Of a stretch of 64,000 nucleotides of DNA, positions 1-21,570 are shown piece after piece; within the stretch, counting starts at the first letter, position 1, and each line of letters opens with the position of its first letter. A model generated the notes under the pieces. The model ran no database searches. It was not told the DNA's origin and was given only the letters and a program-made list of their open reading frames with translations. Source of the stretch: Elusimicrobiaceae bacterium. GTDB taxonomy: Bacteria; Elusimicrobiota; Elusimicrobia; Elusimicrobiales; Elusimicrobiaceae. The stretch spans positions 305-64,304 of the forward strand of contig JAZRHA010000008.1 of assembly GCA_045644515.1 (NCBI GenBank). The letters are read 5' to 3'. The position numbers and the translations under genes are program-made.

Positions 1-646
1 TTTCAAACATTTTATACACAGCAATATATAATGTTATTGGGGCCATAATACCTGATTCTTCATCACTATTCGGATTTGAGTTATCGTCATCCGATATTAA
101 GAAAAAATAATCATAGTTTTTTACAAGTTCTTTCCTGTTAATACCATATTTTTTGGACTCATCTACTTTTGGGTTTTCAGTATTCCAATTTTTGGGCCGG
201 CCCATACCGTTTTCTAGATCTTCTTCGCTATCAGACGGTGTCTCTACATATTTAAGTTCCCATCTGCCTGCATTTTCTTTCGGATTAGAATTTATGTCCG
301 CCATAGCAGGAAAAGCACCTGCTAAACGAAATAAATCATAATAAGATATTTCATCCGGGCCTTCTGTTTGCGGATCACTCTTTTTTATGGTATCTGTCAT
401 ATTTTCCCTAAACACTCTGAACGGGAAAGCACCATTAACATAAGCCACAGCATTTAAGAAGTTAGAATACGAAGTAAGCTCAATAAAAGCAGCACTATCC
501 AAAGCAAACTGGTTGCGGATTTTAAAACGAGAAAGTTTAGCTGTTTCAAATAATAAATAGATAACCAGCAATATTGTGGGTATAAGTAAAATTGCCGGTA
601 AGACAATTTGTGCTTTTCTATTTTTTAAGCAGTTTAGAAACTTCAT
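1..646 (-). CDS. Partial (3' end off-window) membrane-anchored protein with a TadG/TadE-like N-terminus; putative pilus-associated
   Basis: Not in the ORF track because it has no stop in the window. Hand translation of the minus strand from ATG 646-644 to base 2 has no stops: MKFLNCLKNRKAQIVLPAILLIPTILLVIYLLFETAKLSRFKIRNQFALDSAAF... This resembles the Tad_N/TadG hydrophobic N-terminus. The ATG lies 1 nt after the stop of the upstream pilin gene. Confidence 0.5.
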   Translation of the reverse strand, partial: MKFLNCLKNRKAQIVLPAILLIPTILLVIYLLFETAKLSRFKIRNQFALDSAAFIELTSYSNFLNAVAYVNGAFPFRVFRENMTDTIKKSDPQTEGPDEISYYDLFRLAGAFPAMADINSNPKENAGRWELKYVETPSDSEEDLENGMGRPKNWNTENPKVDESKKYGINRKELVKNYDYFFLISDDDNSNPNSDEESGIMAPITLYIAVYKMFE

Positions 647-647
647 A

Positions 648-812
648 CTAACTTAAAATATTACCTATTATCGTAAAAAAACCGCCAACAAGTTCTTTAT
701 GAAAACTTACGGTAAATGCTAAAATAAATGCAACAATAGAGCCAAGCATCAGTAAAAACTCTGCCGTCTGCTGGCCTTTTTTATTTGCAATTATTTTGAG
801 CATTTGTTTCAT
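648..812 (-). CDS. flp: Flp-type / class III signal peptide pilin (54 aa), third copy
   Basis: Below the ORF-track size cutoff; hand translated: MKQMLKIIANKKGQQTAEFLLMLGSIVAFILAFTVSFHKELVGGFFTIIGNILS. It has the same KGQxTxE[YF] plus hydrophobic helix as the pilins at 15128-15535. Its ATG overlaps the response-regulator stop (TAATG). Confidence 0.6.
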   Translation of the reverse strand: MKQMLKIIANKKGQQTAEFLLMLGSIVAFILAFTVSFHKELVGGFFTIIGNILS

Positions 813-1477
813 TATTTATCGGAGGATATTATCCCCAATTTTATTGCTTTAACAACAGCTTCCGTTCTGCTTGTTACGCCAAGTTTATGGAAAGCGCTGT
901 TTAAGTGATTCTTAATAGTTTTAACACTACAATTAAGTTCAATGGCAAGTTCTTTATTGCTAAGTCCGGAGCCAAGCATATCCAAAACTTTAACTTCTGT
1001 TTTTGTAAGCATGGCTTGGGCTGGAGCATTAGGTTCACCCATTTTGCGAAGACCTTGTAAAAGTTTACTCATCATCTGTTGTGGAATCATTAAACCTTCA
1101 GTTGTAAAAGTGCGTATTGAGTTCACAAGTTCCGCTGCCGGCAACATTTTAGATAGATAACCGTTTGCACCTGCTTGTACGGCATCCATAACATGGGCTT
1201 CATCTTCAAAGCTTGAGAGCATTAAGATATTAATATTTGGTTCTACTTTTTTAATATTTTTTGTTGCGGTAATACCATCCATTTTAGGAAGTTTAATATC
1301 CATTAATATCACATCAGGTTTAAGTTTTTTAGCAAGAGCTACAGCTTCCTCGCCGTCAGCAGCTTCACCGACAACGGAAATCCACTTTTCCCCTGTCAAT
1401 ACATCCTTAATACCTTCCCTAAACAAGGTTTGGTCATCTGCAATTAATACCTTTACAATTTTCTTTTTAGTTGCCAT
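812..1477 (-). CDS. NarL/FixJ (LuxR-type HTH) response regulator
   Basis: REC domain (VLIADDQ...DVILMDIKLPKMDG) and C-terminal LuxR HTH (LSNKELAIELNCSVKTIKNHLNSAFHKLGV). SD AGGAGAT lies upstream of the ATG at 1477. Confidence 0.9.
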   Translation of the reverse strand: MATKKKIVKVLIADDQTLFREGIKDVLTGEKWISVVGEAADGEEAVALAKKLKPDVILMDIKLPKMDGITATKNIKKVEPNINILMLSSFEDEAHVMDAVQAGANGYLSKMLPAAELVNSIRTFTTEGLMIPQQMMSKLLQGLRKMGEPNAPAQAMLTKTEVKVLDMLGSGLSNKELAIELNCSVKTIKNHLNSAFHKLGVTSRTEAVVKAIKLGIISSDK

Positions 1478-1485
1478 AATATCTC

Positions 1486-2613
1486 CTATTTCTCAATAAG
1501 TGGCAAAGTGAAACAGAAAGAAGATCCTTTCCCCTTGCCCTCGCTTTCAGCCCAAATTTTACCACCATGGTTTTGTACAATATCTTGCGCTATGGACAAA
1601 CCCAAACCTAAACGCCCGCCACCTGTTGCACTTTGATAGAAACTTTTAAAAAGTTCCTTTGTTAGTTCAGGCTCAATACCATCCCCGGTGTCCTTTACTA
1701 TTACTTTAGCATTTTTATCGTCATTTTTCACTACCGAAATTGAAATTCTGCCTTCTTCCTTAGTATGCCTTATGCCGTTCTCGACGATATTGGATATAAC
1801 TTGCCTTATTCTTTTGGGATCACCAAAAACCATAAATTCGCCATTACTTTCGAAAGTCATCAAAATATTTTTAAGTTTGGCCTTTTCTCTAAAAACTTCA
1901 AAAGCGCTCTTAAGCATAGCGGTTAATTCAAATTCTTGCTTTTCTAAACGGAGTTTTCCCTTTTCAATAGCAGCCCAATCAACAAGATCTTTAACCAAGA
2001 CAAATATTTGCTCTAAACTTTGTTCCATATAGCCCATTTTTTTAGTTTGATCGGCATCAGGTTTCTTTATAGTACGTTGAAGCATTTGAAAACTCATATT
2101 CAATGCCATTAAAGAATTGGACAAATCATGCGATACAATGGAAAAGAATTTACTCTTCATTGTATTCAAATTGCTTAAATCAGCATTTGTTTTTTTAAGC
2201 TCGGCAAGAAGTTGGCGGTTACTTTGTTCCAAGTAAAACTTTTCAAGAGCCATTTTGATTGTCCTTTTAAGATAATCAAAATCAACCGGCTTCATCATAA
2301 AATCATACACACTTTCTTGTACTGCTTTGATTGCTGCATTCAAAGAGGCATGCGCTGTTATCATTATTATTTGACTCTTTTCATTAAAACGTCTGATTTC
2401 ATTTATAAGATCAAGGCCGGTACCGTCCCCTAAGTTATAGTCCATTAAAATAACATGGAAGAAATCCCCTTTAACGAGTTCCATACACTCTTTTGTGCTT
2501 TCAGCCTGATATACATCATAGCCCTCAAGCTCTAAGAGTTCTGCCAAAGTTTCCCTCAAATTATTATCGTCATCTACAACCAATACTTTTGCTTTTTGAT
2601 TATCTGTTATCAT
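1486..2613 (-). CDS. Hybrid receiver-histidine kinase (REC-HisKA-HATPase_c)
   Basis: REC (KVLVVDDD...ILMDYNLGDGTG), H-box (FSIVSHDLSN), G-boxes (DTGDGI, GGGRLGLGLSI). The ORF-track start at 2640 is TTG. I prefer the ATG at 2613 (MITDNQKAKVLVVDDD), 1 nt after the upstream kinase stop. Confidence 0.85.
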   Translation of the reverse strand: MITDNQKAKVLVVDDDNNLRETLAELLELEGYDVYQAESTKECMELVKGDFFHVILMDYNLGDGTGLDLINEIRRFNEKSQIIMITAHASLNAAIKAVQESVYDFMMKPVDFDYLKRTIKMALEKFYLEQSNRQLLAELKKTNADLSNLNTMKSKFFSIVSHDLSNSLMALNMSFQMLQRTIKKPDADQTKKMGYMEQSLEQIFVLVKDLVDWAAIEKGKLRLEKQEFELTAMLKSAFEVFREKAKLKNILMTFESNGEFMVFGDPKRIRQVISNIVENGIRHTKEEGRISISVVKNDDKNAKVIVKDTGDGIEPELTKELFKSFYQSATGGGRLGLGLSIAQDIVQNHGGKIWAESEGKGKGSSFCFTLPLIEK

Positions 2614-2614
2614 A

Positions 2615-4426
2615 CTATTTACCCACGAGTTTAAAAACAAATGTCATCTTTGTTCCTTTACCGACTTCACTTTTTAATTTAAAATCTACTTTATTCCTAG
2701 CACACACCTTTTTTACAACAGCAAGCCCAAGGCCTGTGCCACGCGCTTTTGTTGTGAAGAAAGGTGTGAAAATCTGTTCTTGCAATTCTTCCGGAATACC
2801 AGGGCCGTTATCTGTAACACTTAAAGAAGCATTTTCATCATTTACTTTTTTCGTCTTCACTACCAACATACCGCCTTTAGGCATAACTTCTATTGCATTT
2901 GCAACAACATTTCTTAATGCCTGTTTCATTTCTTCAGTATCAATAGTAATAGGCAAATCTTCACTATAAAAATAAGTTGTAAGTTGTATATTTGGGGGAA
3001 TAGGATAGGAAGACAATATTTCCCTTGCATATAAACTTAAATCTATAGTCGTAAGTATTTGATCACGTGTCCGGGCATAACCCAAAATTTCCTCAATAAT
3101 ACTGTTTGCCTGGTTTATTTCCTCATCAATTACTTTAAAATTTTTTGCTACTTTAACATCTGCACCACTACCTAAACGTGTTTTAATTAAATATACCGCA
3201 TTTTTAATAACAGCAAGCGGATTTTTAATTTCATGACTGACAATAGAAGCCATTTGCCCAATAGCAGCAAGACGTTCTTTTTTAATTAATTCATTTAAAG
3301 CTGTTCTTAATTCTTTAGTACGGCTGCCAACCCGGATTTGAAGCGATTGATTAAGCCCTTCCAAATCTTCCCTTTCCTGACGTAATTCATCAAAACGTAT
3401 TTTAAGGGAATCTAGCATCTTTGCAAATGCTAATGATAAAGCCCCTATCTCATTATCCGGAAAAGGTAAATCAGGTATTTGATCTGCTTTGCCCTGTTCT
3501 ATTTTTCTAAAAGCTCTTGTCATAGTATTTATTGGGGTTATCATTATACTGGAAATATAAATACTCATGAGTAAAGCAAAAAGAAAAACTATAGCAAGAA
3601 TTATAAGTATTTCCTTATAGAAACGTTTATATAAATTTATTAATCCACCTTCAATTTTATTTGATGAATCATAAGTATAAATAAGCCAACCGCTTAAACT
3701 GTTTACTGATAATACTCCTATATTTTCATCAGCCTCCACAGATACAAGAACGCCTTCTTCTGCCCTGGGAGCTAATATTGACATTTCCTTTTTATATGAA
3801 TTGGAATTCCCCTGATTTATTCCTTCTTCAGAAGAATAAATTAAAAAGCCATTTTTTGTAAAAATCAAAATATTTCCATACTCTGAAGGTAAATAATTTT
3901 TTAAATTATCTAAAGGAATTTGTGCGGCAACAAAATGTATTCTATTTAAAAAACTATTCTTTATAGCAATAGCGGCACTTAACCCTTTGTCTTTGACCAC
4001 CCCTAAACTACCGATACTTAAAGCCCCGGTTTGAACGGTATTCTTAATTTCTTGATTGAATTTAAATTTTGGATTTGGCCCAAAATAAGCATATTCTTTT
4101 GCAGATGAGTCAAAAAATGCTAAAGAAATAAACTCCGAACTTTCCTGGATAAAATCAGAAACATCTTTATGACTCAAATTAATATCTGTTCTATCGTGAA
4201 AAGTATGAATAGTTAAAAAATTGTCAAGTAAAATTGAATTATTTTGAAAAAATGAATCAATTCCCTTATCTACAAAAACATTAAAATTTTTTAGGAGATT
4301 TAATTCTTCCTCTTTTAATAATGCTTCTTCAGCATTATGTGTAAAGAAAAAAGATAAAACTAACGGTAATAATGCTACCGTCATTAAAGAGAGAAATATT
4401 AATTGTCTTAGTTGTCCCTTTCTCAT
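2615..4426 (-). CDS. Membrane sensor histidine kinase (periplasmic sensor domain, HAMP, HisKA, HATPase_c)
   Basis: N-terminal TM helix, about 250-aa extracytoplasmic region, second TM, HAMP-like linker, H-box (ASIVSHEIKNPL), N/G boxes (DNGPGIP, GTGLGLAV). Confidence 0.85.
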   Translation of the reverse strand: MRKGQLRQLIFLSLMTVALLPLVLSFFFTHNAEEALLKEEELNLLKNFNVFVDKGIDSFFQNNSILLDNFLTIHTFHDRTDINLSHKDVSDFIQESSEFISLAFFDSSAKEYAYFGPNPKFKFNQEIKNTVQTGALSIGSLGVVKDKGLSAAIAIKNSFLNRIHFVAAQIPLDNLKNYLPSEYGNILIFTKNGFLIYSSEEGINQGNSNSYKKEMSILAPRAEEGVLVSVEADENIGVLSVNSLSGWLIYTYDSSNKIEGGLINLYKRFYKEILIILAIVFLFALLMSIYISSIMITPINTMTRAFRKIEQGKADQIPDLPFPDNEIGALSLAFAKMLDSLKIRFDELRQEREDLEGLNQSLQIRVGSRTKELRTALNELIKKERLAAIGQMASIVSHEIKNPLAVIKNAVYLIKTRLGSGADVKVAKNFKVIDEEINQANSIIEEILGYARTRDQILTTIDLSLYAREILSSYPIPPNIQLTTYFYSEDLPITIDTEEMKQALRNVVANAIEVMPKGGMLVVKTKKVNDENASLSVTDNGPGIPEELQEQIFTPFFTTKARGTGLGLAVVKKVCARNKVDFKLKSEVGKGTKMTFVFKLVGK

Positions 4427-4444
4427 AAAATTTTGAGTTTAAAA

Positions 4445-4470
4445 ATTGGGGCATAATTTTATGCCCCAAT
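4445..4470 (-). terminator. Rho-independent terminator after the pilus assembly operon
   Basis: Perfect 10-bp stem attggggcat/atgccccaat with a 6-nt loop. On the minus strand it is followed by TTTTT. It lies between the stop at 4490 and the next gene start at 4426. Confidence 0.75.
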
Positions 4471-4489
4471 TTAAAAGTACGAAATTACT

Positions 4490-5434
4490 TTAGCATTGGC
4501 CTTGCGGGGCTGCATTGGCTGCTGAACCGCCGTAATTTTGTTTAAAGCCTTCAAGACCTTTAATATTACCTAAAGAACCTAAGTCTGTTACAGTTCTTCC
4601 TTGCCAAATTACTGTAGGTGAACCGGAAACATTATATTCTTCGGTAATTTTCATATCTTCTTTCAATTTTTCTAAACCAAAATTCCAATGCTTAGCAAAA
4701 ATTCTAGGGTTAATACCGGCTTTTTCAGCGGCTTTATCCCATAAGGAACTCTTGTAATCTTTATTTCTTATTTCAAGATATTTCCAGAATTTTTTAGGAT
4801 ATTTTTCACGAATAATAATTTGCCTTACATCTTCTTCCCATTCGGCAGAACCGTGCAAACTGTTAATTTCGCCGTTCCTTTCGCTGGCAATATAGCGGAC
4901 ATTGATTTTTAAGTCTTTAGGAAGTCTGCCAAGTTTCATCAAATCAATAATTTGATTTTCAGCTCTGACTCCATAAGGGCATTGAGACATTACAAACAAA
5001 TCAAGTTCCATAGGCCTTAATGCTTTATTAGCATAAACACCGTTTCTTGTTTGATGTTCAAAAACAAGTTGGCCGTTATGTTCTTTAATTTGACCTGACC
5101 TTATAAATCTGTCAAATTTTTCTTGCACTAAAGCATTTTTTTCAACCAAATATAAAGGCATAAAATCTAAATTTAAACCTTGATATTTGGGATCATTTAA
5201 TGCAGCTGAACGATTAACGGTTGTAACATTTAATTTCGCACCCAAAACTTGCTCTAAACCTGAATTCAAAGCAGAATCCACACCGCCGGTAGAATCATCA
5301 TCCATTATAATAACTGTAACCGGAATTTCTGTAACACTTGATTTTGTTTTAGCAGCATTATTTTTAGGGGTAGCTGCAAAAACAAAACCGAAACATATTG
5401 CTAACATTGCAAAAGCAGCAATAAACTTTTTCAT
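4490..5434 (-). CDS. Secreted thioredoxin-fold (DsbA/GILT-like) protein with a single-Cys CPYG motif
   Basis: Signal peptide (MKKFIAAFAMLAICFGFVFA). The C-terminal half has DsbA-like layout (LFVMSQCPYG...SGSPTVIWQG) but CPYG instead of CxxC. The protein ends in Cys. The assignment is weak. Confidence 0.35.
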   Translation of the reverse strand: MKKFIAAFAMLAICFGFVFAATPKNNAAKTKSSVTEIPVTVIIMDDDSTGGVDSALNSGLEQVLGAKLNVTTVNRSAALNDPKYQGLNLDFMPLYLVEKNALVQEKFDRFIRSGQIKEHNGQLVFEHQTRNGVYANKALRPMELDLFVMSQCPYGVRAENQIIDLMKLGRLPKDLKINVRYIASERNGEINSLHGSAEWEEDVRQIIIREKYPKKFWKYLEIRNKDYKSSLWDKAAEKAGINPRIFAKHWNFGLEKLKEDMKITEEYNVSGSPTVIWQGRTVTDLGSLGNIKGLEGFKQNYGGSAANAAPQGQC

Positions 5435-5452
5435 TTTAATAATCTCCTTTTA

Positions 5453-5752
5453 TTAATTTTCTTCTTTTACTTCTTCTTTGGATACAGGCTCTTCAACAGT
5501 AAATGTTAAACCCCTCATACCGAAAGAACAAAATAAATTGTATGCAAAAGCAGAAATAACAATCAGCACCAAATAAACCATTGTATCTACAAGCGTCCAC
5601 AATATAATCTGCAATATTTGTTGCATAATGCTCATATCCGGCATGCTTGACACTTGTAAAATATAATTTACAAGACATAAGACAAATACCAACAACGGAA
5701 ATGCTGAAAGTATTATCGATTTCAAGTTAATATTTTTTATTTCTATCTTCAT
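5453..5752 (-). CDS. Small integral membrane protein (3 predicted TM helices), unknown function
   Basis: 99-aa ORF with SD GAGGAT, hydrophobic segments and an acidic C-terminal tail (VEEPVSKEEVKEEN). Tightly packed in the operon. Confidence 0.55.
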   Translation of the reverse strand: MKIEIKNINLKSIILSAFPLLVFVLCLVNYILQVSSMPDMSIMQQILQIILWTLVDTMVYLVLIVISAFAYNLFCSFGMRGLTFTVEEPVSKEEVKEEN

Positions 5753-5766
5753 TTATCCTCCTAAAA

Positions 5767-6879
5767 TTATTGTTTTGGTTCCAAAATTACTATAGTTCTT
5801 ATTATACCACCTTTAGAAGCAAGTTGCAAAGCTTTTATTGAAAAGACATGGCTACCGCTTTTTGCGACAGTCCTAAATATCTTACCCGGATTATCCATAG
5901 CCCTACCGACTATGTTTACAATATCTTGCTGCGTGCCGCCAAATATATCCAACAAGTGAACCGGGCCTTCTTTTTGTATCTTCAACTCAAAATTGGCATG
6001 CATAATATTGTTGTTTTCGTCTACGACTATGGCCCTTGTACCTTTGGGTATCGTAACTGCCAAAATAGAAGACCACCACTCCTGTTCATAGTGCAAGCGG
6101 TTTTCCTCTATTTCTTCCTGTTCTTCAAGTTCCTTTTTAACTTTACCTAAAAAATTCTCAACAGCTTGCGCTAATATACCGATTTCATCCCCACGGGAAG
6201 AAAAGTTTAAAACGAAACTCTTAGTGGAAATATTATCTATACCTTCAGCTAGTTGCAAAAGAGGGTTTGTTACACTTCTTATGACAAAGATATATAGCAC
6301 AAAGCCCATTAAAATAAAAATGATTGCAGAACCTATTAAATACCAAGTCAATGCCTTTTTAATTTCTTCTTTCACTTGTTTCCTGGACACATCAATACTG
6401 ATGATACCGGCTATCTTATCCCCTTTGGCTTTAAGAGGTATGGCTATTTCGTAATAATTACCTTCTTTCTTAATTTTTACGCTTGGAAGGCCCGTTCTTA
6501 CCGCTTCTTCTATAGCATTTGTTTCCAAATAACCGCCGCGTTGATAATCTGTAATCGGCATATCAAGTAAATCAAGATTTTTATGCCATCTTACAGTACC
6601 GTTACCGTTAAAGTAAACTATGTTACTTATTCTGCTATCCTGACGAGGCCAAGAAGAAATTATTTCACTTTCAGGAACAGTCAAATAACCTTTTGGTGAT
6701 ACTAAGCCTTCAACCAAAACACTGGCATTTTGACGGACGGTATCAATAACCTGATTTTGTAAATTGAGGTCAAAAACCCTCTTAAACAAATTGAAATATA
6801 ACAAACCACCTACTATAATGGCATATATTGCTACCATCGTAAACCAAATGAACCATCTTGTACTTATTCTTCTAATCAT
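5767..6879 (-). CDS. Membrane HAMP-domain protein with periplasmic sensor-like domain and no recognisable output domain
   Basis: TM1, about 150-aa extracytoplasmic segment, TM2, HAMP (NPLLQLAEGIDNIS...GDEIGILAQAVENF), then about 110 aa of PAS-like region. No kinase, MCP or GGDEF motifs seen. Confidence 0.6.
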   Translation of the reverse strand: MIRRISTRWFIWFTMVAIYAIIVGGLLYFNLFKRVFDLNLQNQVIDTVRQNASVLVEGLVSPKGYLTVPESEIISSWPRQDSRISNIVYFNGNGTVRWHKNLDLLDMPITDYQRGGYLETNAIEEAVRTGLPSVKIKKEGNYYEIAIPLKAKGDKIAGIISIDVSRKQVKEEIKKALTWYLIGSAIIFILMGFVLYIFVIRSVTNPLLQLAEGIDNISTKSFVLNFSSRGDEIGILAQAVENFLGKVKKELEEQEEIEENRLHYEQEWWSSILAVTIPKGTRAIVVDENNNIMHANFELKIQKEGPVHLLDIFGGTQQDIVNIVGRAMDNPGKIFRTVAKSGSHVFSIKALQLASKGGIIRTIVILEPKQ

Positions 6880-6881
6880 AT

Positions 6882-8420
6882 TTACCTGTTACTATATTTC
6901 TCTTCAACTCTTTTTAAACCCAATGCGGCATCTGAATTTTCTGGATTTAAATTAAGAGCCGCTTGCCATTCCTCTTTAGCTTTTTCATAATTACCTTCGC
7001 TAAAAGCTGCCAAACCTAAGCGATAATGCTTAATAGAAGCTTGACGAGCAGCCTCTGAAACTCTTGTAGGAGTTTTATCAACTATTGCTTGTGCAGGGAA
7101 ATCTTCTTGTTCACCTTCTACATCCATATCTATAGGAGGCAATTTCTCACCTGTATTTTCCTTTACTTCACTTATAATCTTTGTTTGTGTTGTGGTTGTT
7201 GTTCCTTCCGGAGTTTCTTCTATATTAGTAACCACAGTTCTGGAAGTCGCAACTTCTTTGTTTTTAGAAGAATTTGCAACCGGCAACACTTCTTGAATCG
7301 TAGCATTATTATTTTCTTCAAAAATAACGGGGCAAGGTTTACATTTTAATTTCGGACAAGGAGGACATTTATCCCCTCTTTCCACCTTAGTCTCGGTAGT
7401 TGATGTTGAACTGCGGGTATTCTTTGCCACATAAGAAATACTTTTAGCTTTCTGTGCACTTCTTATCAACACTGAAATATCTTGCTGGCTGTAACCCCAT
7501 TTTTGAGCTTCTTTCCAATTAGTAATAGCCGTATTATATCTTCTCTCATTATAAGCTTTATTACCGGCATTATAATAACTGTTTGCAATTTCTTCCCTAA
7601 TTTGCAAAATAAATTTTTGTGTTTGTTGTTCACCCGGTTGTATTTCGTGAGCCCTATTAAACTCCCGGTAGGCATCAATAAGTTTGCCTTTTGAATAATA
7701 TTCAAAAGCCTGATCAAGTGCTTTTTGGCTTTCTTCTTTTTTAATTAAATTTTCTACTTCTGCAATCTTTAAATTTAAAGCAGGGTCATCTTTCCTAATT
7801 AACAAGACATTGTACCATTGGTTTAAAGCTTCCTGATAATCCCCTTGTTTATAAGCGTAATAACCTCTTCTAGTATGTATTTTTGTAAATTCATTATTAA
7901 TTCGCTCTATCCAAACACGTGCATCTTCTTCATTGGGGTTTAATGTCAAAATTTCTTCAAATTTATTTTGAGCCTCAACTAAATAACCTTGCTTATATAA
8001 GGAATACGCTTCCTTATATTTCATATCCAAAATTTCTTTTTCCGAAAGAGTTCCATAAGTTGCCATTTTAGTTGCGGTATTAGATAATGTCTTAGCTTTT
8101 TTCATGCTAGGATCTATACTTAAAATAACATCAGAAATTTCTGCAGCTCTTTGATAATCCCCCTGCTTATACATATTATAAGCATTATCATAAACCATAT
8201 TTAAAGTAAAATTTTGTATTCTTTGTTTTTCAAGCTGAACAGTAGAAAGGTACTGCCTTCTCTGTTCTACATTAGCCAAAGTACCAAGTGACATCTTCTG
8301 CAAATCAAGCATTAAACCAGCCTCTTTTCCTGTTTCCCTAAGAGGCCTGTCGGCCGCTCTTGCAAAAGAAAGTGACACTGCAAAAACTAAAAATAAAAAA
8401 GTATAAATGATTTTTTTCAT
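6882..8420 (-). CDS. Secreted TPR-repeat protein (TadD-like position in the pilus operon)
   Basis: Signal peptide. Repeated TPR signatures (YKQGDYQRA, YKQGYLVEA, YKQGDYQEA, GNYEKAKEEW). Central low-complexity linker containing CPPCPKLKCKPCP. Confidence 0.7.
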   Translation of the reverse strand: MKKIIYTFLFLVFAVSLSFARAADRPLRETGKEAGLMLDLQKMSLGTLANVEQRRQYLSTVQLEKQRIQNFTLNMVYDNAYNMYKQGDYQRAAEISDVILSIDPSMKKAKTLSNTATKMATYGTLSEKEILDMKYKEAYSLYKQGYLVEAQNKFEEILTLNPNEEDARVWIERINNEFTKIHTRRGYYAYKQGDYQEALNQWYNVLLIRKDDPALNLKIAEVENLIKKEESQKALDQAFEYYSKGKLIDAYREFNRAHEIQPGEQQTQKFILQIREEIANSYYNAGNKAYNERRYNTAITNWKEAQKWGYSQQDISVLIRSAQKAKSISYVAKNTRSSTSTTETKVERGDKCPPCPKLKCKPCPVIFEENNNATIQEVLPVANSSKNKEVATSRTVVTNIEETPEGTTTTTQTKIISEVKENTGEKLPPIDMDVEGEQEDFPAQAIVDKTPTRVSEAARQASIKHYRLGLAAFSEGNYEKAKEEWQAALNLNPENSDAALGLKRVEEKYSNR

Positions 8421-8429
8421 CCTAAACTC

Positions 8430-9323
8430 CTAAAACGGCATACCCCCATGCATAAAATCAGCAATCATAGGTGATAACATCATAATGAATACAACGGGGA
8501 ATATAAAAATAAATAACGGTATTAACATTTTTGTTGATGCTTGTGCAGCCAATTTTTCTGCTTTATTTAAACGCCTAAATCTTAAATCTGTAGAGAAATT
8601 ACGTAATAATTGCACCAAGCTCGTTCCTAATTCATCTGATTGTATAATCAACCCGACAAAAGATCTAATATCTTGCACCCCTGTTCTTGCGGCTAAACGT
8701 TCCAAAGACTCACGTCTGGAATAACCAAGTTTTGTCTCATTTAAGGTTTTTTCAATTTCAGTTTCAAGTAAAGTTTTTTCTTTAGCAATTTTTACTATAC
8801 GCTCAAAAGCCGTCATATAATCAAGACCTGATTCTATAACCAAAGCCATCAAATCTACCATTGTAGCAAAGTTTGCCAACATGTTTTGCTGACGTTTTTC
8901 AATCTCTGCTTTATAATATAAATCAGGCAAATAAAACCCAAGAGGTATAAAAAATATAACCAATAATGTACCAAAAAGTAAATATAAAATTAGAGGAGTT
9001 GCTATGGCAGAATAAATCTTATAGTAAAGCATATCCACCGGTTGAGGTTTTTCCGGGCTACCTAAAAGAACCCAAATATCTTCTAACGATTTTTCTAGGT
9101 GGAAAAAATCTAAGACATAAAAAGCAACTCTATCAAGTAAATTTTCATCCGGTTTTAATTTAGCAAAAGAAGATGCAGATTTTACTTGCTTTGCTTCCAA
9201 GTCAGAAATATCTTGGTCAGCCGGAGCAGGGGTTAAAAATATAATAACTGAGAGGAAAATACAAATCGTTCCGCCTATAGCTAGCAACAGCAACATCAAA
9301 TGTACCATTCCTAAATTGCTCAT
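8430..9323 (-). CDS. tadC: Tad pilus inner-membrane platform protein TadC (T2SS-F family)
   Basis: T2SSF-domain pattern (cytoplasmic helical domain flanked by TM helices). Follows tadB with a 4-nt overlap. Confidence 0.75.
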   Translation of the reverse strand: MSNLGMVHLMLLLLAIGGTICIFLSVIIFLTPAPADQDISDLEAKQVKSASSFAKLKPDENLLDRVAFYVLDFFHLEKSLEDIWVLLGSPEKPQPVDMLYYKIYSAIATPLILYLLFGTLLVIFFIPLGFYLPDLYYKAEIEKRQQNMLANFATMVDLMALVIESGLDYMTAFERIVKIAKEKTLLETEIEKTLNETKLGYSRRESLERLAARTGVQDIRSFVGLIIQSDELGTSLVQLLRNFSTDLRFRRLNKAEKLAAQASTKMLIPLFIFIFPVVFIMMLSPMIADFMHGGMPF

Positions 9324-10909
9324 ACTTTAATTTCCCCTAACTTGTTGACGGCCTTTATACCAATGAATATCCAAATTATACAAAATAACAACACAACTAT
9401 ACCAATCGGAGTCGTATAAAAGTTTATCATGGTATCAGGTTGGAATACAAACATAACACCCACCATAATCCATGGCATAATACCTACAACTATAGCTTGT
9501 ATCCTTTGCTGGGCGGTCATAGCCTGAAGTTTTTCTTCAAGTTTACTTTCTTCACGGATATTTTCTACGATACGTTCAAAAATTTTAGTTAAATTACCGC
9601 CGACTTGCCTTTGCAAAACTATCGCTTTTACCATATAAGAAAGCAAACGGGATTCCACACGTTCTTCCATCATTTCCAGAGATCTTTCAAACGGGGTACC
9701 CAAATTATAATTTTTTATTACTAAACCAAATTCTTCGGATATGGGTGGACGTAAATCTTTTGATACCATTTCAAAACCTTGCACAATATCCATACCTGAT
9801 TTTAAGGAATTTGAAAGCAAAATTAAAGCGTCCATAAGTTGTTTGTTTATTTTATTACCTCTTTGCCTTTTCAAAACTCTAAGCATAGAGCCCGGCATTT
9901 TAAGCCCCACATGCAAACCTATACCAAAGAAAACACATAAAACCACAAACCCAAAAATACCGCCCAAAGCCATGGCGAACATTATACCTAAGAAAGTAAA
10001 CAAAACAACAGTAGCAACAACCATATATTTTATGTTAATTCTAATAAATTGCCTGTTATAATCATCAACCCAAACAGATGTTTTTTGCAAATATTTATCT
10101 ATAGCACCACTGATAGCATCATTTTGATTATTCATTATCATCAAAACAGCCAAAAAAACAAGTAATGTACCTAACATGGTAAGAATTAGTAACATAACTT
10201 GGTTATTAGGCCTTTTAAAACGCGCTGGTGCTACCGCAAGCCATTGTTTCATCATGACAGTTGAATAGATAGAATTTGAGAGAATAGCAATACCTATAAT
10301 TGATTTCCTGAATTTACTGCGCCATTGTTTTGGAGATACTACGAAAGATTCCCCCACACTTACCATCTCTTTATTAATTAGCTCAAGTGTAGATATTATT
10401 TGCCTTCCGCGCCCTTCCATACTTTCGTAAAAAGCCGGCTCTGAAGCAATAATATCTAATGTAATTAAGAAACGAGTGCGCAGAAAACCAAATTGTTCCA
10501 TAATTTCTTGTGAAGTATAGGCGGTCCCTTCATTTATACCATCAGCTAAAGCTAAATATTCATGAATAATATTGAAAGCCCTTTGCCATATTTGCGCTTC
10601 ACTATAAGATTGAGTGCCGGTTTCAGTATCCTGCTGCCAAATTTGTTTCTTTGCCATTTCCGGTAAAGATTTTTCAAGCCAATCTGGCATCGGTATTGGT
10701 TTGCTTTTACCGCATTGTGAAGGATTAAAAGCCTTTTGATCCGAAGGTTTGTCAACATTTAAGAAATTATATACTGCATATATTTTTTCTTCCGCACATT
10801 TTAAAATTTGTGTTTGTTTATCTGTCAAAACTTGTTGAGCGAAACAAACACTTTGCCCTAATATCAGGGTTGCGATAAGGAAAAATAATACAGTTTTTAA
10901 GTTCTTCAT
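9320..10909 (-). CDS. tadB: TadB-like platform protein (T2SS-F domain) with about 230-aa N-terminal secreted extension
   Basis: The C-terminal 290 aa have T2SSF layout (LRVLKRQRGNKINKQLMDALILLSNSLKSG...). The N-terminus has a signal peptide and a soluble domain not usual for TadB. Confidence 0.7.
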   Translation of the reverse strand: MKNLKTVLFFLIATLILGQSVCFAQQVLTDKQTQILKCAEEKIYAVYNFLNVDKPSDQKAFNPSQCGKSKPIPMPDWLEKSLPEMAKKQIWQQDTETGTQSYSEAQIWQRAFNIIHEYLALADGINEGTAYTSQEIMEQFGFLRTRFLITLDIIASEPAFYESMEGRGRQIISTLELINKEMVSVGESFVVSPKQWRSKFRKSIIGIAILSNSIYSTVMMKQWLAVAPARFKRPNNQVMLLILTMLGTLLVFLAVLMIMNNQNDAISGAIDKYLQKTSVWVDDYNRQFIRINIKYMVVATVVLFTFLGIMFAMALGGIFGFVVLCVFFGIGLHVGLKMPGSMLRVLKRQRGNKINKQLMDALILLSNSLKSGMDIVQGFEMVSKDLRPPISEEFGLVIKNYNLGTPFERSLEMMEERVESRLLSYMVKAIVLQRQVGGNLTKIFERIVENIREESKLEEKLQAMTAQQRIQAIVVGIMPWIMVGVMFVFQPDTMINFYTTPIGIVVLLFCIIWIFIGIKAVNKLGEIKV

Positions 10910-13101
10910 TATTCCGCCTTTGCAAAAGTACTCTCCGGTACTTCAAGACCTTTAGCTTTAAATTCATCAAAGAAAGTGGGCTTTATACCTGTAGCCGTAA
11001 ATTGTCCTTCCACTTTTCCCTCCGGGTTAACACCCGTTTGATTATATCTAAATAAATCTTGTGTTTTAATCTCATCACCTTCTCTACCACAAATTTCCGT
11101 AATATATGTGACTTTTCTCGTACCATCGGAAAACCTTGAAAGTTGAACAACCAAGTTTACGGCAGAGGATATCATTTCCCTAATAGCCCAAATAGGAAGT
11201 TCCGCACTTGCCATCATACACATTGCTTCAAGACGGGTTAAACTATCCCTTGGGGTATTTGCGTGAATTGTGGCCAGTGAACCTTCGTGACCGGTATTCA
11301 TGGCTTGTAACATGTCCAAAGCTTCTGCGCCGCGACACTCACCGACTACGATTCTGTCCGGCCTCATACGCAAACAGTTAATAACTAAATCTTTAATCGT
11401 TATAGCACCCTTTCCTTCCACGTTTGGTGGGCGGCTTTCCAAAGACACCCAGTGTTCCTGTTGCAAACGAAGTTCTGCGGTATCTTCCACAGTAACAATA
11501 CGCTCATCACCGGGAATATAACTTGAAAGGGCATTTAAAAATGTTGTTTTACCTGTACCAGTACCACCGCTGATAATAATGTTTTTGCGGAGTTTGACAC
11601 AGTTTTCTAAGAAGAACATACACTCTTTATTGATAGTACCAAAGCGGTAATAATCTTCAGGCCCGAATGGTTTTTGAGAGAAACGCCTAATTGTAAGTGA
11701 AGGCCCTGAAACCGCAAGCGGTGCAATAATAGCATTAACACGGGAACCGTCTTTCAAACGGGCGTCCACCAAAGGTACTGATTCGTCAATACGCCTGCCA
11801 AGCGGGGCAACAATCCTTTTAATGACTTGTACAACCTGGTCATTATTCCTAAATTTATAACGTGTTAAGGTTAACTTACCTTTTTGTTCAATAAAAATCT
11901 TATCATAAGCGTTTACCATGATTTCGGTAACGGATGGATCCCTCATCAAAGCCTCTAATGGCCCAAGGCCCAAAATTTCATCCAAAAGTTCATTAATGAA
12001 ACGGAGTTTTTGGTCCCTTGATAACTGGACATTAGCCTTTTTCCTTAAAACATCATCAATAATTATGGCAACGCGTTTCCTTGTCTGCTCGTTTTGGGAA
12101 CCTTCCTCGCTAATAACGATACGTTCCACCTCTAAAGTTTTAATAACATCCTTGTGAACTTGTTGTTTTAAACTATCCCAATAAGAAAGTTCCTCACTTT
12201 TATCGGTATGGTTTGGTGCATGGCCTGTACTTACAACACTTAAAGCCTCCCATACTTCCTTGGAATTGGCTTTAAATGCTTCATTTGAAATGGATGTAGT
12301 CCAAGTCTTATCGATAGGGGTAGTTTCTTCTATAACTTTTAAAATGGGACGTAAACCTTCCTGTACCCAAGCAGAATTCCTATTAACTAAAATCTCTATT
12401 TCACGTTTATTGGAAGATTCAAAAACACTTTCTTCCCAAGTTAAATATACCAAAGGCTCACGCCCTAAACGTATAAAAAATTTATTGACTTCTTCATGCG
12501 GAATAGCACCGGGCAAGTTATATTGATTACAAATAATATCCAACCGGTCAATCGGGAAATGAAGTTCTTTAAAATCGGTGAACATACTTACTGTCGTATT
12601 TAAATGCGGACGCGTACAATTTGTAACCCAGAAAATTTTATCAGCGATATCAAACCCAAAAGCTTCCATAGGGAAACTTGAATCAATATCCAAAAATATA
12701 TCAAAATGCTGTTGTAAGCGGGACAAAATAGGTAATAAAACTTTAGGCGTAATTAAGGAAACTTCCTGCCTTGTGGAACCAAGCGGTAAAATACCGACAC
12801 CCACTTGTGTCATGGAAATTTTACCCCTTATAAGCGCAGCGGCAGATTCTATAGCAACATTATCCAAACCAAGTGCTTTAGATAAATCAGCTATTGTAAT
12901 GGGTTTTCTTATTCCCAAATAAAAACCATGCTCCTGCCTAGCAAGCGGATCCAAAGGCACGATAATAACCGGCCTTTTTTGCATCTCCGCCCAAGCAACT
13001 GCCAAGTTCAAAACAAGAGTCGTTTTACCGACACCTTCTTTTGGACCTGTAAATGCAATTACGCGCGGCGTTCCGAAAGCAGGGATTTGTGTATCTGTCA
13101 T
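10909..13101 (-). CDS. cpaF: Fused CpaE/TadZ-like ParA ATPase domain and CpaF/TadA secretion ATPase
   Basis: N-terminus: deviant Walker A of the MinD/ParA type (IAFTGPKEGVGKTTLVLNLA). C-terminus: T2SS-E/VirB11 ATPase with Walker A GGTGTGKTT, Walker B RPDRIVVGECRGAEA and His box GHEGSLATIHAN. Confidence 0.85.
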   Translation of the reverse strand: MTDTQIPAFGTPRVIAFTGPKEGVGKTTLVLNLAVAWAEMQKRPVIIVPLDPLARQEHGFYLGIRKPITIADLSKALGLDNVAIESAAALIRGKISMTQVGVGILPLGSTRQEVSLITPKVLLPILSRLQQHFDIFLDIDSSFPMEAFGFDIADKIFWVTNCTRPHLNTTVSMFTDFKELHFPIDRLDIICNQYNLPGAIPHEEVNKFFIRLGREPLVYLTWEESVFESSNKREIEILVNRNSAWVQEGLRPILKVIEETTPIDKTWTTSISNEAFKANSKEVWEALSVVSTGHAPNHTDKSEELSYWDSLKQQVHKDVIKTLEVERIVISEEGSQNEQTRKRVAIIIDDVLRKKANVQLSRDQKLRFINELLDEILGLGPLEALMRDPSVTEIMVNAYDKIFIEQKGKLTLTRYKFRNNDQVVQVIKRIVAPLGRRIDESVPLVDARLKDGSRVNAIIAPLAVSGPSLTIRRFSQKPFGPEDYYRFGTINKECMFFLENCVKLRKNIIISGGTGTGKTTFLNALSSYIPGDERIVTVEDTAELRLQQEHWVSLESRPPNVEGKGAITIKDLVINCLRMRPDRIVVGECRGAEALDMLQAMNTGHEGSLATIHANTPRDSLTRLEAMCMMASAELPIWAIREMISSAVNLVVQLSRFSDGTRKVTYITEICGREGDEIKTQDLFRYNQTGVNPEGKVEGQFTATGIKPTFFDEFKAKGLEVPESTFAKAE

Positions 13102-13102
13102 A

Positions 13103-13843
13103 CTATTCTACAATCTCCACAGTTACGAAGAGGAATAATGAGCGTTGGTCTTCCATTACGTTACGTGTCCTAAAAAAGGCACCAATCAATGGAATATTAC
13201 CAAGTATTGGCACTCTGTCTTCCGCAATAGAACGGTTACTGCTCTTTAAACCGCCGATAACTAAAGTTTCACCGCTATTTAATTCAACTTCTGTTCTTAA
13301 TTGCCTTTTATTTATAGACGGAACAGAAGTACCATTTAAAACAACAGGATTTGAATAATCAGGATTGGATAATTCAATGCTAAGTTGTACTACAATAATT
13401 TTATTGCGTTCAGGGATAATTGTCGGTAAAACATCAAGTATGATTCCGTAATCTTGAAAATCTACGCCGGCTGAATTGTTTTGCACAGTTGGGTAAGGGA
13501 TTTTGCCGCCCGCGAAAAAACTTGCACTGGTATTTGATCTAGCCATAACTTTTGGATTAGATAAAACCTGCGCTTTACCTTCCGTTTCCATTAATTTCAA
13601 ACGAGTACTTAAAAGTGATCTGCGTTCAAATTCCCCAATGGAAAATACACCTGGGATATTCTTTTCCTGGAAATCAAGCAATTGGTTCCAAGCAAAACCT
13701 TTTGAGGTTGAAAGCGAACCGCTGATTTCCACAATATCAGCACTGACGGCCACGAGATCTGTCTTTTTAGCATAACCTGTTTGCGCAAACAAAGCAAGTG
13801 CCAAAGGCAGAATAAATAATTTTAAGACTTGTTTATATTTCAT
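13103..13843 (-). CDS. cpaC: Minimal secretin (secretin C-domain only, 246 aa)
   Basis: Signal peptide followed almost directly by the secretin domain (LMETEGKAQVLSNPKV...GETLVIGGL...RVPILGNIPLIGAFFR). Confidence 0.8.
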   Translation of the reverse strand: MKYKQVLKLFILPLALALFAQTGYAKKTDLVAVSADIVEISGSLSTSKGFAWNQLLDFQEKNIPGVFSIGEFERRSLLSTRLKLMETEGKAQVLSNPKVMARSNTSASFFAGGKIPYPTVQNNSAGVDFQDYGIILDVLPTIIPERNKIIVVQLSIELSNPDYSNPVVLNGTSVPSINKRQLRTEVELNSGETLVIGGLKSSNRSIAEDRVPILGNIPLIGAFFRTRNVMEDQRSLFLFVTVEIVE

Positions 13844-13853
13844 AATTTATCCC

Positions 13854-14612
13854 TTAATAACTAAATAATTTTGAAAAACTTGAAACTGCCATCGGGTACA
13901 TTTTACTATCCCCACTGGAGCGAACAACTATTGTTACTTCCCCCTCTTCTTTTGCAAGTGCCAAATATTGTGCTTCAAGAGGAGTCAAAGCCAAACTCAA
14001 AACAGAACGGTCAGAAAATGCTGCCGCATTTGCTTCCCTTTCAGAATTTGCCGTCTTACCGGCAGCATCTAAACCTTGGCCTAAATTAGAACCTACACCC
14101 AAGACCAAGATGTTTTGCAAAATTGTTGCGGCCATATTTTCTTTAGCACCGCCTTTTAATGCTGCTTCAAAAGTAAGCAAGATATCAACTTTATCACCTG
14201 GTTTTACTAAATTTGAAACATTGTTATTAACTTCCAAAATAAAAGCGCGGTAATTTGGTGTTACTTTTAAACTGATACCGGCATCAGGGCTTAAGGAGGC
14301 TAAAGCTGACCTTGTTATTTGATCATCTTTAGAAATTGAAATACGGGTAACTAAATTTTCAATATCTGCAATATTATCCCCTTTAGATAAGACAAATGCT
14401 CCCCTTTGTACATATGCAGAAGGAATTTCTTTTGCAGTAATAAAATTTCTTTGCATTACTTTGCCTTCAGGTATATCAACATTAGCTACTGCTACTGTCA
14501 CTGCATTGCTTGCTTTTTGCAAGGAACTTTGTGCCATATTAAGTATCAAGAAATAAATAACCGCTGCAACTACTGCAAATAATAACGGTATTAAAGCATT
14601 TTTTTTGTTCAT
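13854..14612 (-). CDS. cpaB: Flp pilus assembly protein CpaB/RcpC
   Basis: N-terminal TM anchor, SAF-like domain (VTVAVANVDIPEGKVMQ), C-terminal RcpC-type region. Sits in the canonical position between tadE and the secretin. Confidence 0.75.
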   Translation of the reverse strand: MNKKNALIPLLFAVVAAVIYFLILNMAQSSLQKASNAVTVAVANVDIPEGKVMQRNFITAKEIPSAYVQRGAFVLSKGDNIADIENLVTRISISKDDQITRSALASLSPDAGISLKVTPNYRAFILEVNNNVSNLVKPGDKVDILLTFEAALKGGAKENMAATILQNILVLGVGSNLGQGLDAAGKTANSEREANAAAFSDRSVLSLALTPLEAQYLALAKEEGEVTIVVRSSGDSKMYPMAVSSFSKLFSY

Positions 14613-14644
14613 AACTCTCCTTAAAACTACTTAAATATTTCAAA

Positions 14645-15118
14645 TCAGTTAAGTAAGGGCCTTTCTATCGGCATACGGGCATTTGCCTTTAGCCATAAGA
14701 TACCCAACCTTTTTGGCTCACTTGCGAAAACATAACTCGTTAAAGGGTAAGCCAAATCTACCCTATAAACGATATTTACTACCAAATCTTCATTAGGGTG
14801 ATCTTTCACCTGCGGATCATTACTTGTGCGCACAATTTTTGAGGAAAACCTCACCTTCTTACCCGGGTCCGCCATACCGAGCATTTTTGATAATGCTGCA
14901 CGCATTTTGCCTTGCATACGGGTTGCATCTGTCGTACCGCTGTGTTTTTTTACACCGACCATAGAGCCAACCCTTGCAAGCTCGTAAGAAATATGGTGGG
15001 CAATTAAAGTATGATAGGCTATATTACCAAGTTCTAATACGACGAAAATTATCATCATAAAAATTGGTAATACTACAACAAGTTCAATTACTGTTTGCCC
15101 ACCCTTATTTCTTAACAT
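14645..15118 (-). CDS. tadE: TadE-like pseudopilin
   Basis: N-terminus MLRNKGGQTVIELVVVLPIFMMIIFVVLELG matches the TadE-like motif (G-x-x-x-x-E then a hydrophobic helix). Confidence 0.75.
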   Translation of the reverse strand: MLRNKGGQTVIELVVVLPIFMMIIFVVLELGNIAYHTLIAHHISYELARVGSMVGVKKHSGTTDATRMQGKMRAALSKMLGMADPGKKVRFSSKIVRTSNDPQVKDHPNEDLVVNIVYRVDLAYPLTSYVFASEPKRLGILWLKANARMPIERPLLN

Positions 15119-15127
15119 TTCAAAGAA

Positions 15128-15337
15128 CTATACTTGTGATGCAGAACCGGTAATTTTTTCTTTAATTTGATTAAATAATTCCGGCATATAATTTTTAATC
15201 AAAGCACCGACGGCAAATACTACGCCAATGATAACTAAAAGCATTAACAAGTATTCAATGGTGTTTTGACCTTTTTTATTCTTAACACTTTCAATAGCTT
15301 TATTAAAAGCTAAGTGCATTTTTGCGATATATTTCAT
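15128..15337 (-). CDS. flp: Flp-type / class III signal peptide pilin (69 aa)
   Basis: MKYIAKMHLAFNKAIESVKNKKGQNTIEYLLMLLVIIGVVFAVG...; SD GGAGGA upstream. Confidence 0.8.
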   Translation of the reverse strand: MKYIAKMHLAFNKAIESVKNKKGQNTIEYLLMLLVIIGVVFAVGALIKNYMPELFNQIKEKITGSASQV

Positions 15338-15361
15338 ACATCCTCCAATACTTTTAAATTT

Positions 15362-15535
15362 TTACGAATCCAGCTCGTACACTGATAAAATTATTTTTGC
15401 CCCGTTTTCAAACTGCCTGGGCACTATATGGCTATAAAGCTGGTAAAACAAAACAAAGGCAACAAAAAGTGCTGCTGTGGTTAAAATATATTCAACCGTT
15501 GTCTGCCCTTTGTTATTTTTTACCAAATTTTTCAT
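15362..15535 (-). CDS. flp: Flp-type / class III signal peptide pilin (57 aa)
   Basis: Below the ORF-track cutoff; hand translated: MKNLVKNNKGQTTVEYILTTAALFVAFVLFYQLYSHIVPRQFENGAKIILSVYELDS. 174 nt in frame from ATG 15535 to TAA 15362-15364. Confidence 0.7.
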   Translation of the reverse strand: MKNLVKNNKGQTTVEYILTTAALFVAFVLFYQLYSHIVPRQFENGAKIILSVYELDS

Positions 15536-15553
15536 ACAATCCCTTTCAATAAA

Positions 15554-16516
15554 CTAAAACTGCAACCTTACAGATAATTGATGTGCCGTACCTAAAGCAC
15601 CGGACGGCAACATAGCATAATCAATACCTAAACCGTATCCCATAATTTCACTGCTGTAAAACCCAAAACCGAAACTGAGTTTTGAGGTATCGGTAAGGCC
15701 GATTTTATCTGCCAAATCGCCGTCTTCTGCATATCCGGTATTTTCGCGGTTATAGTAACCGACGCGGATATCAAAAACAGCAACTTCAATTAAATCTTCC
15801 GGCAAATGTATTACAAGGCCAATACCGTAGCGGGCTTTATCGTCAACATATTTTACAAGTTCACCGGTTAAAGTATAATACTTGGTGTTAAAAGCAACAC
15901 CACCGCGTAAAGCTGTAGGGACCTCTTTTTTATCCCCTAAATTTTGCCCCATTAAGCCCAAAACTAAGGTGTCATTTCTGCCAAATCTCAAACGCCCGCC
16001 CACGTCAAAGGCCGGGTTAACATGTTTTACACCGACGTTATTTTCATTGATATACTTTGCTGTACCGCCGATATCAAGGAAACCCAAAAATGTTCTTGCC
16101 AAACTAACTGTAGCGACATAATCTTGTATAAATTGGCCGGTATAATTTTGGGGTATACCTTCAATATCGCGTGTTTCCAAACTGCCGAGTCTCAAATAAC
16201 GCAAAGTGAAACCGAGGTTTGTTTTCCCCAAAGGTTGAATATATGCAAGGGCGGTATCGCTAACGCCTTCAAACCATTGCATGTGGGAAACCTGGAATTC
16301 CCTGGTATTTGCCGTTGCAGCACCTGCAGGATTCCAAAATAAAGCCTGCGTTCCGTGGGAAAGTGCCGTAAAAGAGTTACCCAAAGCTTGCCCTTCCGGC
16401 GCACCTGTACCGAGTTTCATAAAAGCACCTGCAGAAGTACCTGCATCGCTATGAATATCAGCTTGCGCAGCAAGCGTTGCAAACATTATTACAAATATAA
16501 GTGTTAATTTTTTCAT
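15554..16516 (-). CDS. PorV/PorQ-family-like outer-membrane beta-barrel protein
   Basis: Signal peptide. N-terminal signature GTSAGAFMKLGTGAPEGQALGNSFTALSHGTQALFWNPAGAA, as in PorV-type proteins. Alternating beta-strand pattern with a terminal aromatic residue (RLQF). Confidence 0.6.
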   Translation of the reverse strand: MKKLTLIFVIMFATLAAQADIHSDAGTSAGAFMKLGTGAPEGQALGNSFTALSHGTQALFWNPAGAATANTREFQVSHMQWFEGVSDTALAYIQPLGKTNLGFTLRYLRLGSLETRDIEGIPQNYTGQFIQDYVATVSLARTFLGFLDIGGTAKYINENNVGVKHVNPAFDVGGRLRFGRNDTLVLGLMGQNLGDKKEVPTALRGGVAFNTKYYTLTGELVKYVDDKARYGIGLVIHLPEDLIEVAVFDIRVGYYNRENTGYAEDGDLADKIGLTDTSKLSFGFGFYSSEIMGYGLGIDYAMLPSGALGTAHQLSVRLQF

Positions 16517-21547: not shown

Positions 21548-21570
21548 AATCAAAAAAACACCTCAAATAT

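Follow-up and report, generated by a model that had tools for sequence, protein, structure and literature searches.

A Tad/Flp pilus cluster of an Elusimicrobiaceae bacterium that probably relies on a single PilD-type prepilin peptidase in place of TadV

The 64-kb stretch of DNA analyzed here (the window) lies on contig C8 of a metagenome-assembled genome (MAG; 1.2 Mb in 85 contigs, 88.8% complete) and bears, on its minus strand and running from position 16516 down to position 1, a single pilus gene cluster. We read it, with good probability, as a bacterial Tad/Flp (type IVc) pilus system, complete in its genes, from a gut/rumen bacterium of the Elusimicrobiaceae, in which a single PilD serves in place of TadV. 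The bacterial Tad parts were all found, namely a CpaF-type ATPase, TadB, TadC, CpaB/RcpC, a secretin, a TadZ domain and TadE, and a dedicated TadV/CpaA/FppA peptidase was found neither in the window nor in the genome, in 60 of 60 other genomes of the family or in 51 Elusimicrobial Tad loci, the genome's one A24 enzyme being of PilD type. The initial annotation of the window had taken the [KR]-G-Q leaders of its pilins as the mark of archaeal class III signal peptides, and the locus as a possible divergent or intermediate, archaeal-like Tad lineage. Neither proposal was supported: the leaders fit the bacterial G/XXXXEY rule (the slash marks the cleavage site) with Tyr at +6, Gln at +1 recurs in nine of nine other bacterial loci, the ATPase is CpaF-like and the one A24 peptidase of the genome is of PilD type.

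That peptidase, the genome's sole match to PF01478, is a 257-amino acid (aa) protein on contig C16 with an A24_N_bact domain (124.8 bits, with its CxxC...CxxC pattern), a Peptidase_A24 domain and a GGGD motif, and judged by these features it is a PilD-type (bifunctional-type) prepilin peptidase. The initial annotation was right that no A24 peptidase is encoded in the 64-kb window, since searches with PF01478 and with a custom A24 hidden Markov model (HMM), trained on PilD and seven TadV sequences and recovering every control, both came back empty; the custom model likewise found no A24 gene in the 51 Elusimicrobial Tad loci within the fetched flanks. A canonical tadV just outside the window, which would have spoken against it, did not turn up in the genome or the sampled family either. 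The genome-wide search thus bore out the lack of TadV, but it did uncover an A24 enzyme, that on contig C16. An A24 match is present in 60 of 60 other Elusimicrobiaceae genomes, as exactly one match in 58 of them, and all full-length matches across the family lie within PilD-sized frames of 256–340 aa; the second matches in the remaining two genomes comprise one PilD-sized frame and one sub-threshold match, and a short TadV-sized frame occurs in none of the 60. A completeness of 90% or more is reached by most of the genomes searched (52 of 61, counting that of the window, which itself falls below this threshold). Among five more distant genomes of Elusimicrobia with a Tad locus, four likewise hold one PilD-sized A24 gene and no short TadV, the fifth giving a sub-threshold match only. 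Because the family-wide census shows one PilD-sized match, the single-peptidase pattern is not an assembly gap.

Some other Elusimicrobiota families do have a second, short A24 gene (168–174 aa), of which we read four cases, at L060:9808-10332, L061:8901-9407, L062:9559-10071 and L063:9790-10314. We considered these as lost TadV genes and rejected them, as they are orphans outside any Tad locus; two of the four orphans have a dihydrouridine-synthase-like gene as neighbor. Directly upstream of pilD on contig C16 (L001:1780-2160) lies a gene for a 126-aa protein with a hydrophobic N-terminus, MTKNSIFAREIIVTVFLIILL, no canonical G/F motif and no Pfam family, which may be a divergent pilin-like protein.

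The cluster comprises the following genes, in their order from its head.

15554..16516, minus strand: PorV/PorQ-like outer-membrane barrel at the cluster head (NCBIfam PorV_fam 81.4 bits, cut-off 90; Pfam UPF0164 26.1 bits)
15362..15535, minus strand: Flp-type pilin paralogue 1, 57 aa, leader MKNLVKNNKG/QTTVEY (Class_IIIsignal 14.8 bits), with orthologues in the same position in Elusimicrobial loci
15128..15337, minus strand: Flp-type pilin paralogue 2, 69 aa, leader ...VKNKKG/QNTIEY (Class_IIIsignal 22.0 bits, Flp1_like 19.7 bits)
14645..15118, minus strand: TadE-like pseudopilin, 157 aa, leader MLRNKGG/QTVIEL (Pfam TadE 35.6 bits)
13854..14612, minus strand: CpaB/RcpC alignment protein (TIGR03177 pilus_cpaB 121 bits; Pfam RcpC 64.3 bits)
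13103..13843, minus strand: minimal secretin, 246 aa, consisting of a signal peptide and the secretin domain only (Pfam Secretin 150.8 bits, residues 85-246)
10909..13101, minus strand: fused TadZ/CpaE-like ParA domain and CpaF/TadA ATPase, 730 aa (N-terminal CbiA/AAA_31; T2SSE 207.5 bits, residues 378-656)
9320..10909, minus strand: TadB-like platform protein, 529 aa, with a long secreted N-terminal extension (T2SSF 69.2 bits, residues 362-486)
8430..9323, minus strand: TadC-like platform protein, 297 aa (T2SSF 58 bits)
6882..8420, minus strand: TPR protein with signal peptide, 512 aa (TPR_2 70.9 bits)
2615..6879, minus strand: HAMP protein (Pfam HAMP), small membrane protein, DsbA/thioredoxin-like protein (weak Thioredoxin_5/DSBA) and sensor histidine kinase (HisKA+HATPase_c), within the cluster
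812..2640, minus strand: hybrid receiver-histidine kinase (Response_reg+HisKA+HATPase_c) and LuxR-type response regulator (Response_reg+GerE)
648..812, minus strand: third Flp-type pilin, 54 aa, leader ...ANKKG/QQTAEF (Class_IIIsignal 14.2 bits)
1..646, minus strand: N-terminal part of a 316-aa protein whose open reading frame (ORF) continues beyond the window edge, the full ORF being taken from contig C8

As can be seen, the three small pilin genes of the initial annotation are present on the minus strand with the N-termini it gave, and the TadE gene sharing their leader pattern, the CpaB gene and the secretin gene were likewise recognized by their family models. Ribosome-binding sites precede the 57-aa and 69-aa pilin genes, the latter with GGAGG, and the 69-aa protein is likely the major pilin. 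The N-domain of the fused ATPase is ParA/MinD-like, and the TadB-like and TadC-like proteins contain one T2SSF domain apiece. The 512-aa TPR protein occupies the position expected of a TadD-like pilotin, a TadD-like role being unproven. The 316-aa protein at the window edge has a pilin-like hydrophobic N-terminus, NRKAQIVLPAILL, lacks Glu at +5 and matched no Pfam family; a TadG-like nature is possible and equally unproven. Whether the PorV/PorQ-like barrel is part of the pilus system is uncertain. A promoter and terminator scan of 14400-16800 gave counts like those of shuffled sequence, with 5 promoter-like elements against a mean of 6.6 and 5 terminator-like elements against a mean of 2.4 (standard deviation 1.6). 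The close relatives of the ATPase all belong to Elusimicrobiaceae, Elusimicrobium and other Elusimicrobiota MAGs of rumen, gut, termite and groundwater origin, and the whole cluster, leader motif and short secretin are kept across Elusimicrobia whose ATPases are 55–98% identical. Purifying selection is the reading we draw from this conservation.

Two parts of the cluster are of unusual build. The secretin (13103-13843), at 246 aa and without N domains, compares with 481–563 aa in other Tad loci with a fused ATPase, and TadB (9320-10909) carries a signal peptide and an N-terminal extension of ~230 aa; the two peculiarities may compensate for one another. At the head of the cluster, the PorV/PorQ-like barrel (15554-16516) adjoins the gene for a 1605-aa Cys-rich secreted protein (16736-21553). 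To our knowledge, the Elusimicrobiota are not a phylum known for type IX secretion.

The leaders of the three pilins and of TadE conform to [NK]KG/Q-x-x-x-E-[YFL] (NNKG/QTTVEY, NKKG/QNTIEY, NKKG/QQTAEF and NKGG/QTVIEL), and the cleavage rule G/XXXXEY is met by KKG/QNTIEY and NKG/QTTVEY, the third pilin having EF. When 16 pilins were aligned, taken from Elusimicrobial loci with ATPases 55–98% identical to that of the window, G, Q and E proved invariant and Y (position +6) at least 90% conserved, so the motif is more than chance; both pilin paralogues (57/69 aa) are found in the same place, with G/Q..EY kept, in every Elusimicrobial locus covering the pilin region. Profile scoring upheld the initial annotation in part. 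The window pilins are indeed not ordinary Flp_Fap proteins (PF04964), matching this model neither in the window at E<=1 nor genome-wide at E<=10, and they lean toward Class_IIIsignal (PF04021), with 22.0, 14.8 and 14.2 bits, all below the cut-off of 23.7. The pilin orthologue of E. simillimum reaches 27.9 bits on the latter model, above that cut-off. However, Class_IIIsignal also matches bacterial pilins from elsewhere, as that of the non-Elusimicrobial bacterium at L068 (27.5 bits, above the cut-off, with 24.8 bits on Flp1_like and 23.7 bits on Flp_Fap), and PF04021 therefore does not separate the domains of life; Flp_Fap scores of related bacterial pilins are only 13.7–23.7 bits against a cut-off of 32.2. 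Database names of the Elusimicrobial homologues range from "class III signal peptide-containing protein" to "Flp pilus assembly pilin Flp" and "Flp/Fap pilin component" (Emin_1210), and some bear at JGI the family name UPF0333, a mainly archaeal family.

Gln at +1 is widespread among bacteria. We read nine non-Elusimicrobial Tad loci with a full-length fused TadZ-CpaF, taken from one homologue list and including several mutually close relatives, and in nine of nine every pilin or pseudopilin read has Gln at +1, with leaders such as EEEG/QTTVEY, EEDG/QTAVEY, NKKG/QTAVEY and RRAG/QSVVEY. Their named members are Bdellovibrionales, Bdellovibrionota, "Deltaproteobacteria" and "Proteobacteria" MAGs, and seven of the nine loci contain a short TadV (157–172 aa), the other two being without. 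In the literature, Gln at +1 and Glu at +5 are conserved among EppA substrates, while bacterial Flp pilins commonly have the +1 Gln too and the archaeal Epd pilins are without Tyr at +6 (Nair et al., PMC3875500). The window leader is not specifically archaeal, and we place the cluster in a widespread bacterial sub-clade with TadZ fused to CpaF and with Gln at +1 in all pilins and pseudopilins.

The ATPase points the same way. Compared with chains from the PDB, its C-terminal 420 residues score 398 bits with Caulobacter CpaF, 150 with Archaeoglobus GspE2 and 137 with FlaI; among NCBIfam models the TadA family TIGR03819 is best (333.5 bits, below the subfamily cut-off of 373), followed by VirB11 (226), FlaI (201) and the archaeal bindosome ATPase BasE (114). 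Many full-length relatives (~700–760 aa, 38–44% identity), in Bdellovibrionota and other bacteria, were retrieved from 1.84 billion representatives, as were unfused CpaF proteins with 50–62% identity over the C-domain. A C-domain tree was built from 154 proteins, without archaeal Epd/Aap sequences and with PilT of the window's genome as root. In it the Elusimicrobial ATPases form a clade with a Shimodaira–Hasegawa-like approximate likelihood ratio test (SH-aLRT) value of 97, inside a grouping (96) with other bacterial fused TadZ-CpaF proteins; they show no long branch, and the backbone is poorly resolved with many unresolved forks. The tree gives a bacterial grouping, the comparison with archaea being one of bit scores, and the position of the ATPase inside bacterial CpaF is suggested by score gaps and bacterial neighbors rather than by a rooted test.

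The proposal that comes closest to the archaeal reading is that the Elusimicrobial, or more broadly the fused TadZ-CpaF/G/Q, clade is an early-branching and perhaps the earliest-branching Tad lineage, which retained the leader of an Epd-like ancestor (Gln at +1, basic residue at −2). If so, Elusimicrobia would show such pilins handed wholesale to a bacterial PilD enzyme. It draws on the proposed descent of Tad from an Epd-like archaeal pilus (PMC6668835), on the +1 Gln and +5 Glu of EppA substrates (PMC3875500), on the higher scores of the pilins with Class_IIIsignal than with Flp_Fap and on the UPF0333 label. We nonetheless hold it to be unlikely. Every bacterial accretion is in place (secretin, CpaB, TadE and the TadZ domain), the pilins differ from those of Epd systems in having Tyr at +6, the ATPase is far nearer to Caulobacter CpaF and sits within the bacterial CpaF bush, and an archaeal-type peptidase was not found in the genome or the family census. 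Moreover, in 18 of the 20 trees of Denise et al. it is the Proteobacteria rather than the Elusimicrobia that stand at the base of Tad.

What, then, would process the pilins? The genome encodes at least 10 type IVa-like pilins with leaders of the form M..[NK][KR]G/F[TS]L.E, and because these have the same short basic KKG leader as the Tad pilins, PilD is likely shared between the two sets and likely cleaves the Tad pilins as well. In the model that we favor, the three Flp pilins and TadE would enter the inner membrane, where PilD, encoded elsewhere as the genome's sole prepilin peptidase, would cut after the Gly of the KKG leader, as it would for the at least 10 type IVa-like pilins. The TadZ-CpaF motor on its TadB/TadC platform would then polymerize the pilins, and the filament would pass CpaB and the minimal secretin, with the embedded histidine kinases and the LuxR regulator probably controlling the system. 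The mature pilin would begin with Gln, which may be N-methylated or cyclized to pyroglutamate. Precedent for such sharing exists in Bdellovibrio bacteriovorus, whose tad locus 1 encodes a TadZA fusion. TadV is missing there, and in E. coli both PilA and Flp1 are cut by PilD but not by its catalytic mutants (bioRxiv 10.64898/2026.07.08.737194). Sharing of peptidases among type IV filament systems was assumed by Denise et al. in 2019 (PMC6668835) and has been discussed for the Myxococcus Kil system.

We also tried to tell the two kinds of loci apart by their leaders, with basic residues at −2/−3 denoting TadV-less and acidic residues TadV-bearing loci. This rule is suggestive but was rejected as not clean enough; it is right for five of seven TadV-bearing and two of two TadV-less loci and fails for L070 and L071, in which RRG/Q leaders occur together with TadV, and pseudopilin leaders are basic everywhere. 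Because RRG/Q and TadV coexist in these two loci, the common KKG leader argues weakly for adaptation to PilD.

Several points weigh against our reading of a PilD-served bacterial Tad cluster. The pilins fail the Flp_Fap model; a basic residue at −2 also occurs in loci with TadV, as L070 and L071 demonstrate; the cleavage of Tad pilins by PilD is something that we infer; and the placement of the ATPase relative to Archaea is drawn from bit scores with PDB chains and NCBIfam models. In addition, the genome, at 88.8% completeness, contains two PilT-like genes but not the PilB gene that relatives have; in complete relatives a PilB-like ATPase is encoded alongside two of PilT type and the fused Tad ATPase. 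The absence of PilB from this MAG is presumably due to incompleteness.

The same incompleteness, together with the 85 contigs and with several cluster proteins lacking a family assignment, could be taken to mean that a dedicated peptidase was overlooked, either in the unassembled ~11% of the genome or as a non-A24 or divergent protease within the cluster. We regard this as very unlikely given that the 60 of 60 other family genomes are free of a TadV-sized frame, their full-length A24 proteins being PilD-sized, that zero of 51 Tad loci have an A24 gene within the fetched flanks, and that the cluster proteins without a family assignment fall short in size or do not show the multi-helix layout with two Asp residues, with no A24 signal in the 99-aa membrane protein. 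That the cluster is a decaying, non-functional remnant whose pilins have gone unprocessed since TadV was lost, as a small and reduced 1.2-Mb genome and a secretin shortened to 246 aa might suggest, is likewise very unlikely with all its genes intact and with cluster, leader motif and short secretin conserved over the range of ATPase divergence given above.

Compared with described systems, the PilD-served cluster of the window is most like tad locus 1 of B. bacteriovorus, with which it shares the fusion of TadZ to TadA, the lack of TadV and the histidine kinase and TPR genes adjoining the tad genes; the PilD associated with the type IVa pilus was shown by experiment to be the shared peptidase there, a role inferred in the window system. 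The two differ in phylum and in the C-domain tree, in which the Elusimicrobial ATPases group with a fused set other than the Bdellovibrionota clade, and the Elusimicrobial system is further set apart by having its genes in one cluster, by the 246-aa secretin and by the long N-terminal TadB extension. With the canonical Tad systems (Aggregatibacter tad, Caulobacter cpa and Pseudomonas flp-tad-rcp) the window has in common CpaF, TadB/TadC, CpaB/RcpC, a secretin, TadE, G/XXXXEY Flp pilins and the TadZ function, whereas it lacks TadV/CpaA, has TadZ fused to the ATPase, has pilins with Gln at +1 that Flp_Fap misses, and has a secretin without N domains. The Epd pili of Methanococcus maripaludis resemble it in having short pilins whose class III signal ends in Gly and is followed by Gln at +1 and Glu at +5, the window pilins scoring sub-threshold to threshold on PF04021. 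Epd pili, however, are without the +6 Tyr, Flp motif, secretin and CpaB, and use EppA where the window system has a PilD-type enzyme and a CpaF-like ATPase.

Some of this was known, in that Tad systems had been listed in Elusimicrobia by Denise et al. (PMC6668835), a fused, TadV-less and PilD-dependent Tad system had been described in Bdellovibrio, and +1 Gln had been noted in Flp pilins (PMC3875500). What appears to be new is the lack of TadV, beside a single PilD, both throughout the family as sampled and in the members sampled from its wider class, the uniform +1 Gln across the sampled fused-ATPase clade, and the Elusimicrobial peculiarities of a 246-aa secretin and a TadB with a secreted N-terminal extension. 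A tempting but unsupported view of the locus as an archaeal intermediate is thereby set aside; instead, throughout one bacterial family as sampled, and in four or more of the five members sampled from the wider class, Tad goes without TadV beside a single PilD-type peptidase, matching Bdellovibrio. For annotators, Gln at +1 and matches to PF04021 are normal in a large bacterial Tad clade and should not be read as archaeal origin. The conserved cluster is likely an adhesion organelle of Elusimicrobia, which include gut, rumen and termite symbionts with tiny genomes.

Some further observations concern relatives of the ATPase and of the pilin. The top representatives P0121-P0125 (876–1605 aa) contain two to four separate CpaF-like stretches and may be tandem ATPase fusions or gene-calling artefacts. 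At L065-L068, L072 and L073, which group with named Bdellovibrionota in the tree, the fused TadZ-CpaF gene is followed by a single called T2SSF gene of ~290 aa and directly thereafter by a gene for a 530–600-aa DUF6531/RHS-YD-shell protein (~12200-14900 in L065-L068, ~10200-12850 in L072 and L073), a conserved and unexplained pairing. Lastly, the 69-aa pilin gave a marginal and uninformative tblastn match to plasmids (E = 0.1, Paenibacillus polymyxa plasmid pSb31l). This plasmid bears a pilus-like cluster (L064:3993-9759) encoding a 695-aa ATPase of the T2SS/T4P/T4SS family, a DUF4320 protein and a hydrophobic small protein of 85 aa with weak similarity to the 69-aa pilin, and an A24-like ORF lies ~5 kb downstream of the cluster.

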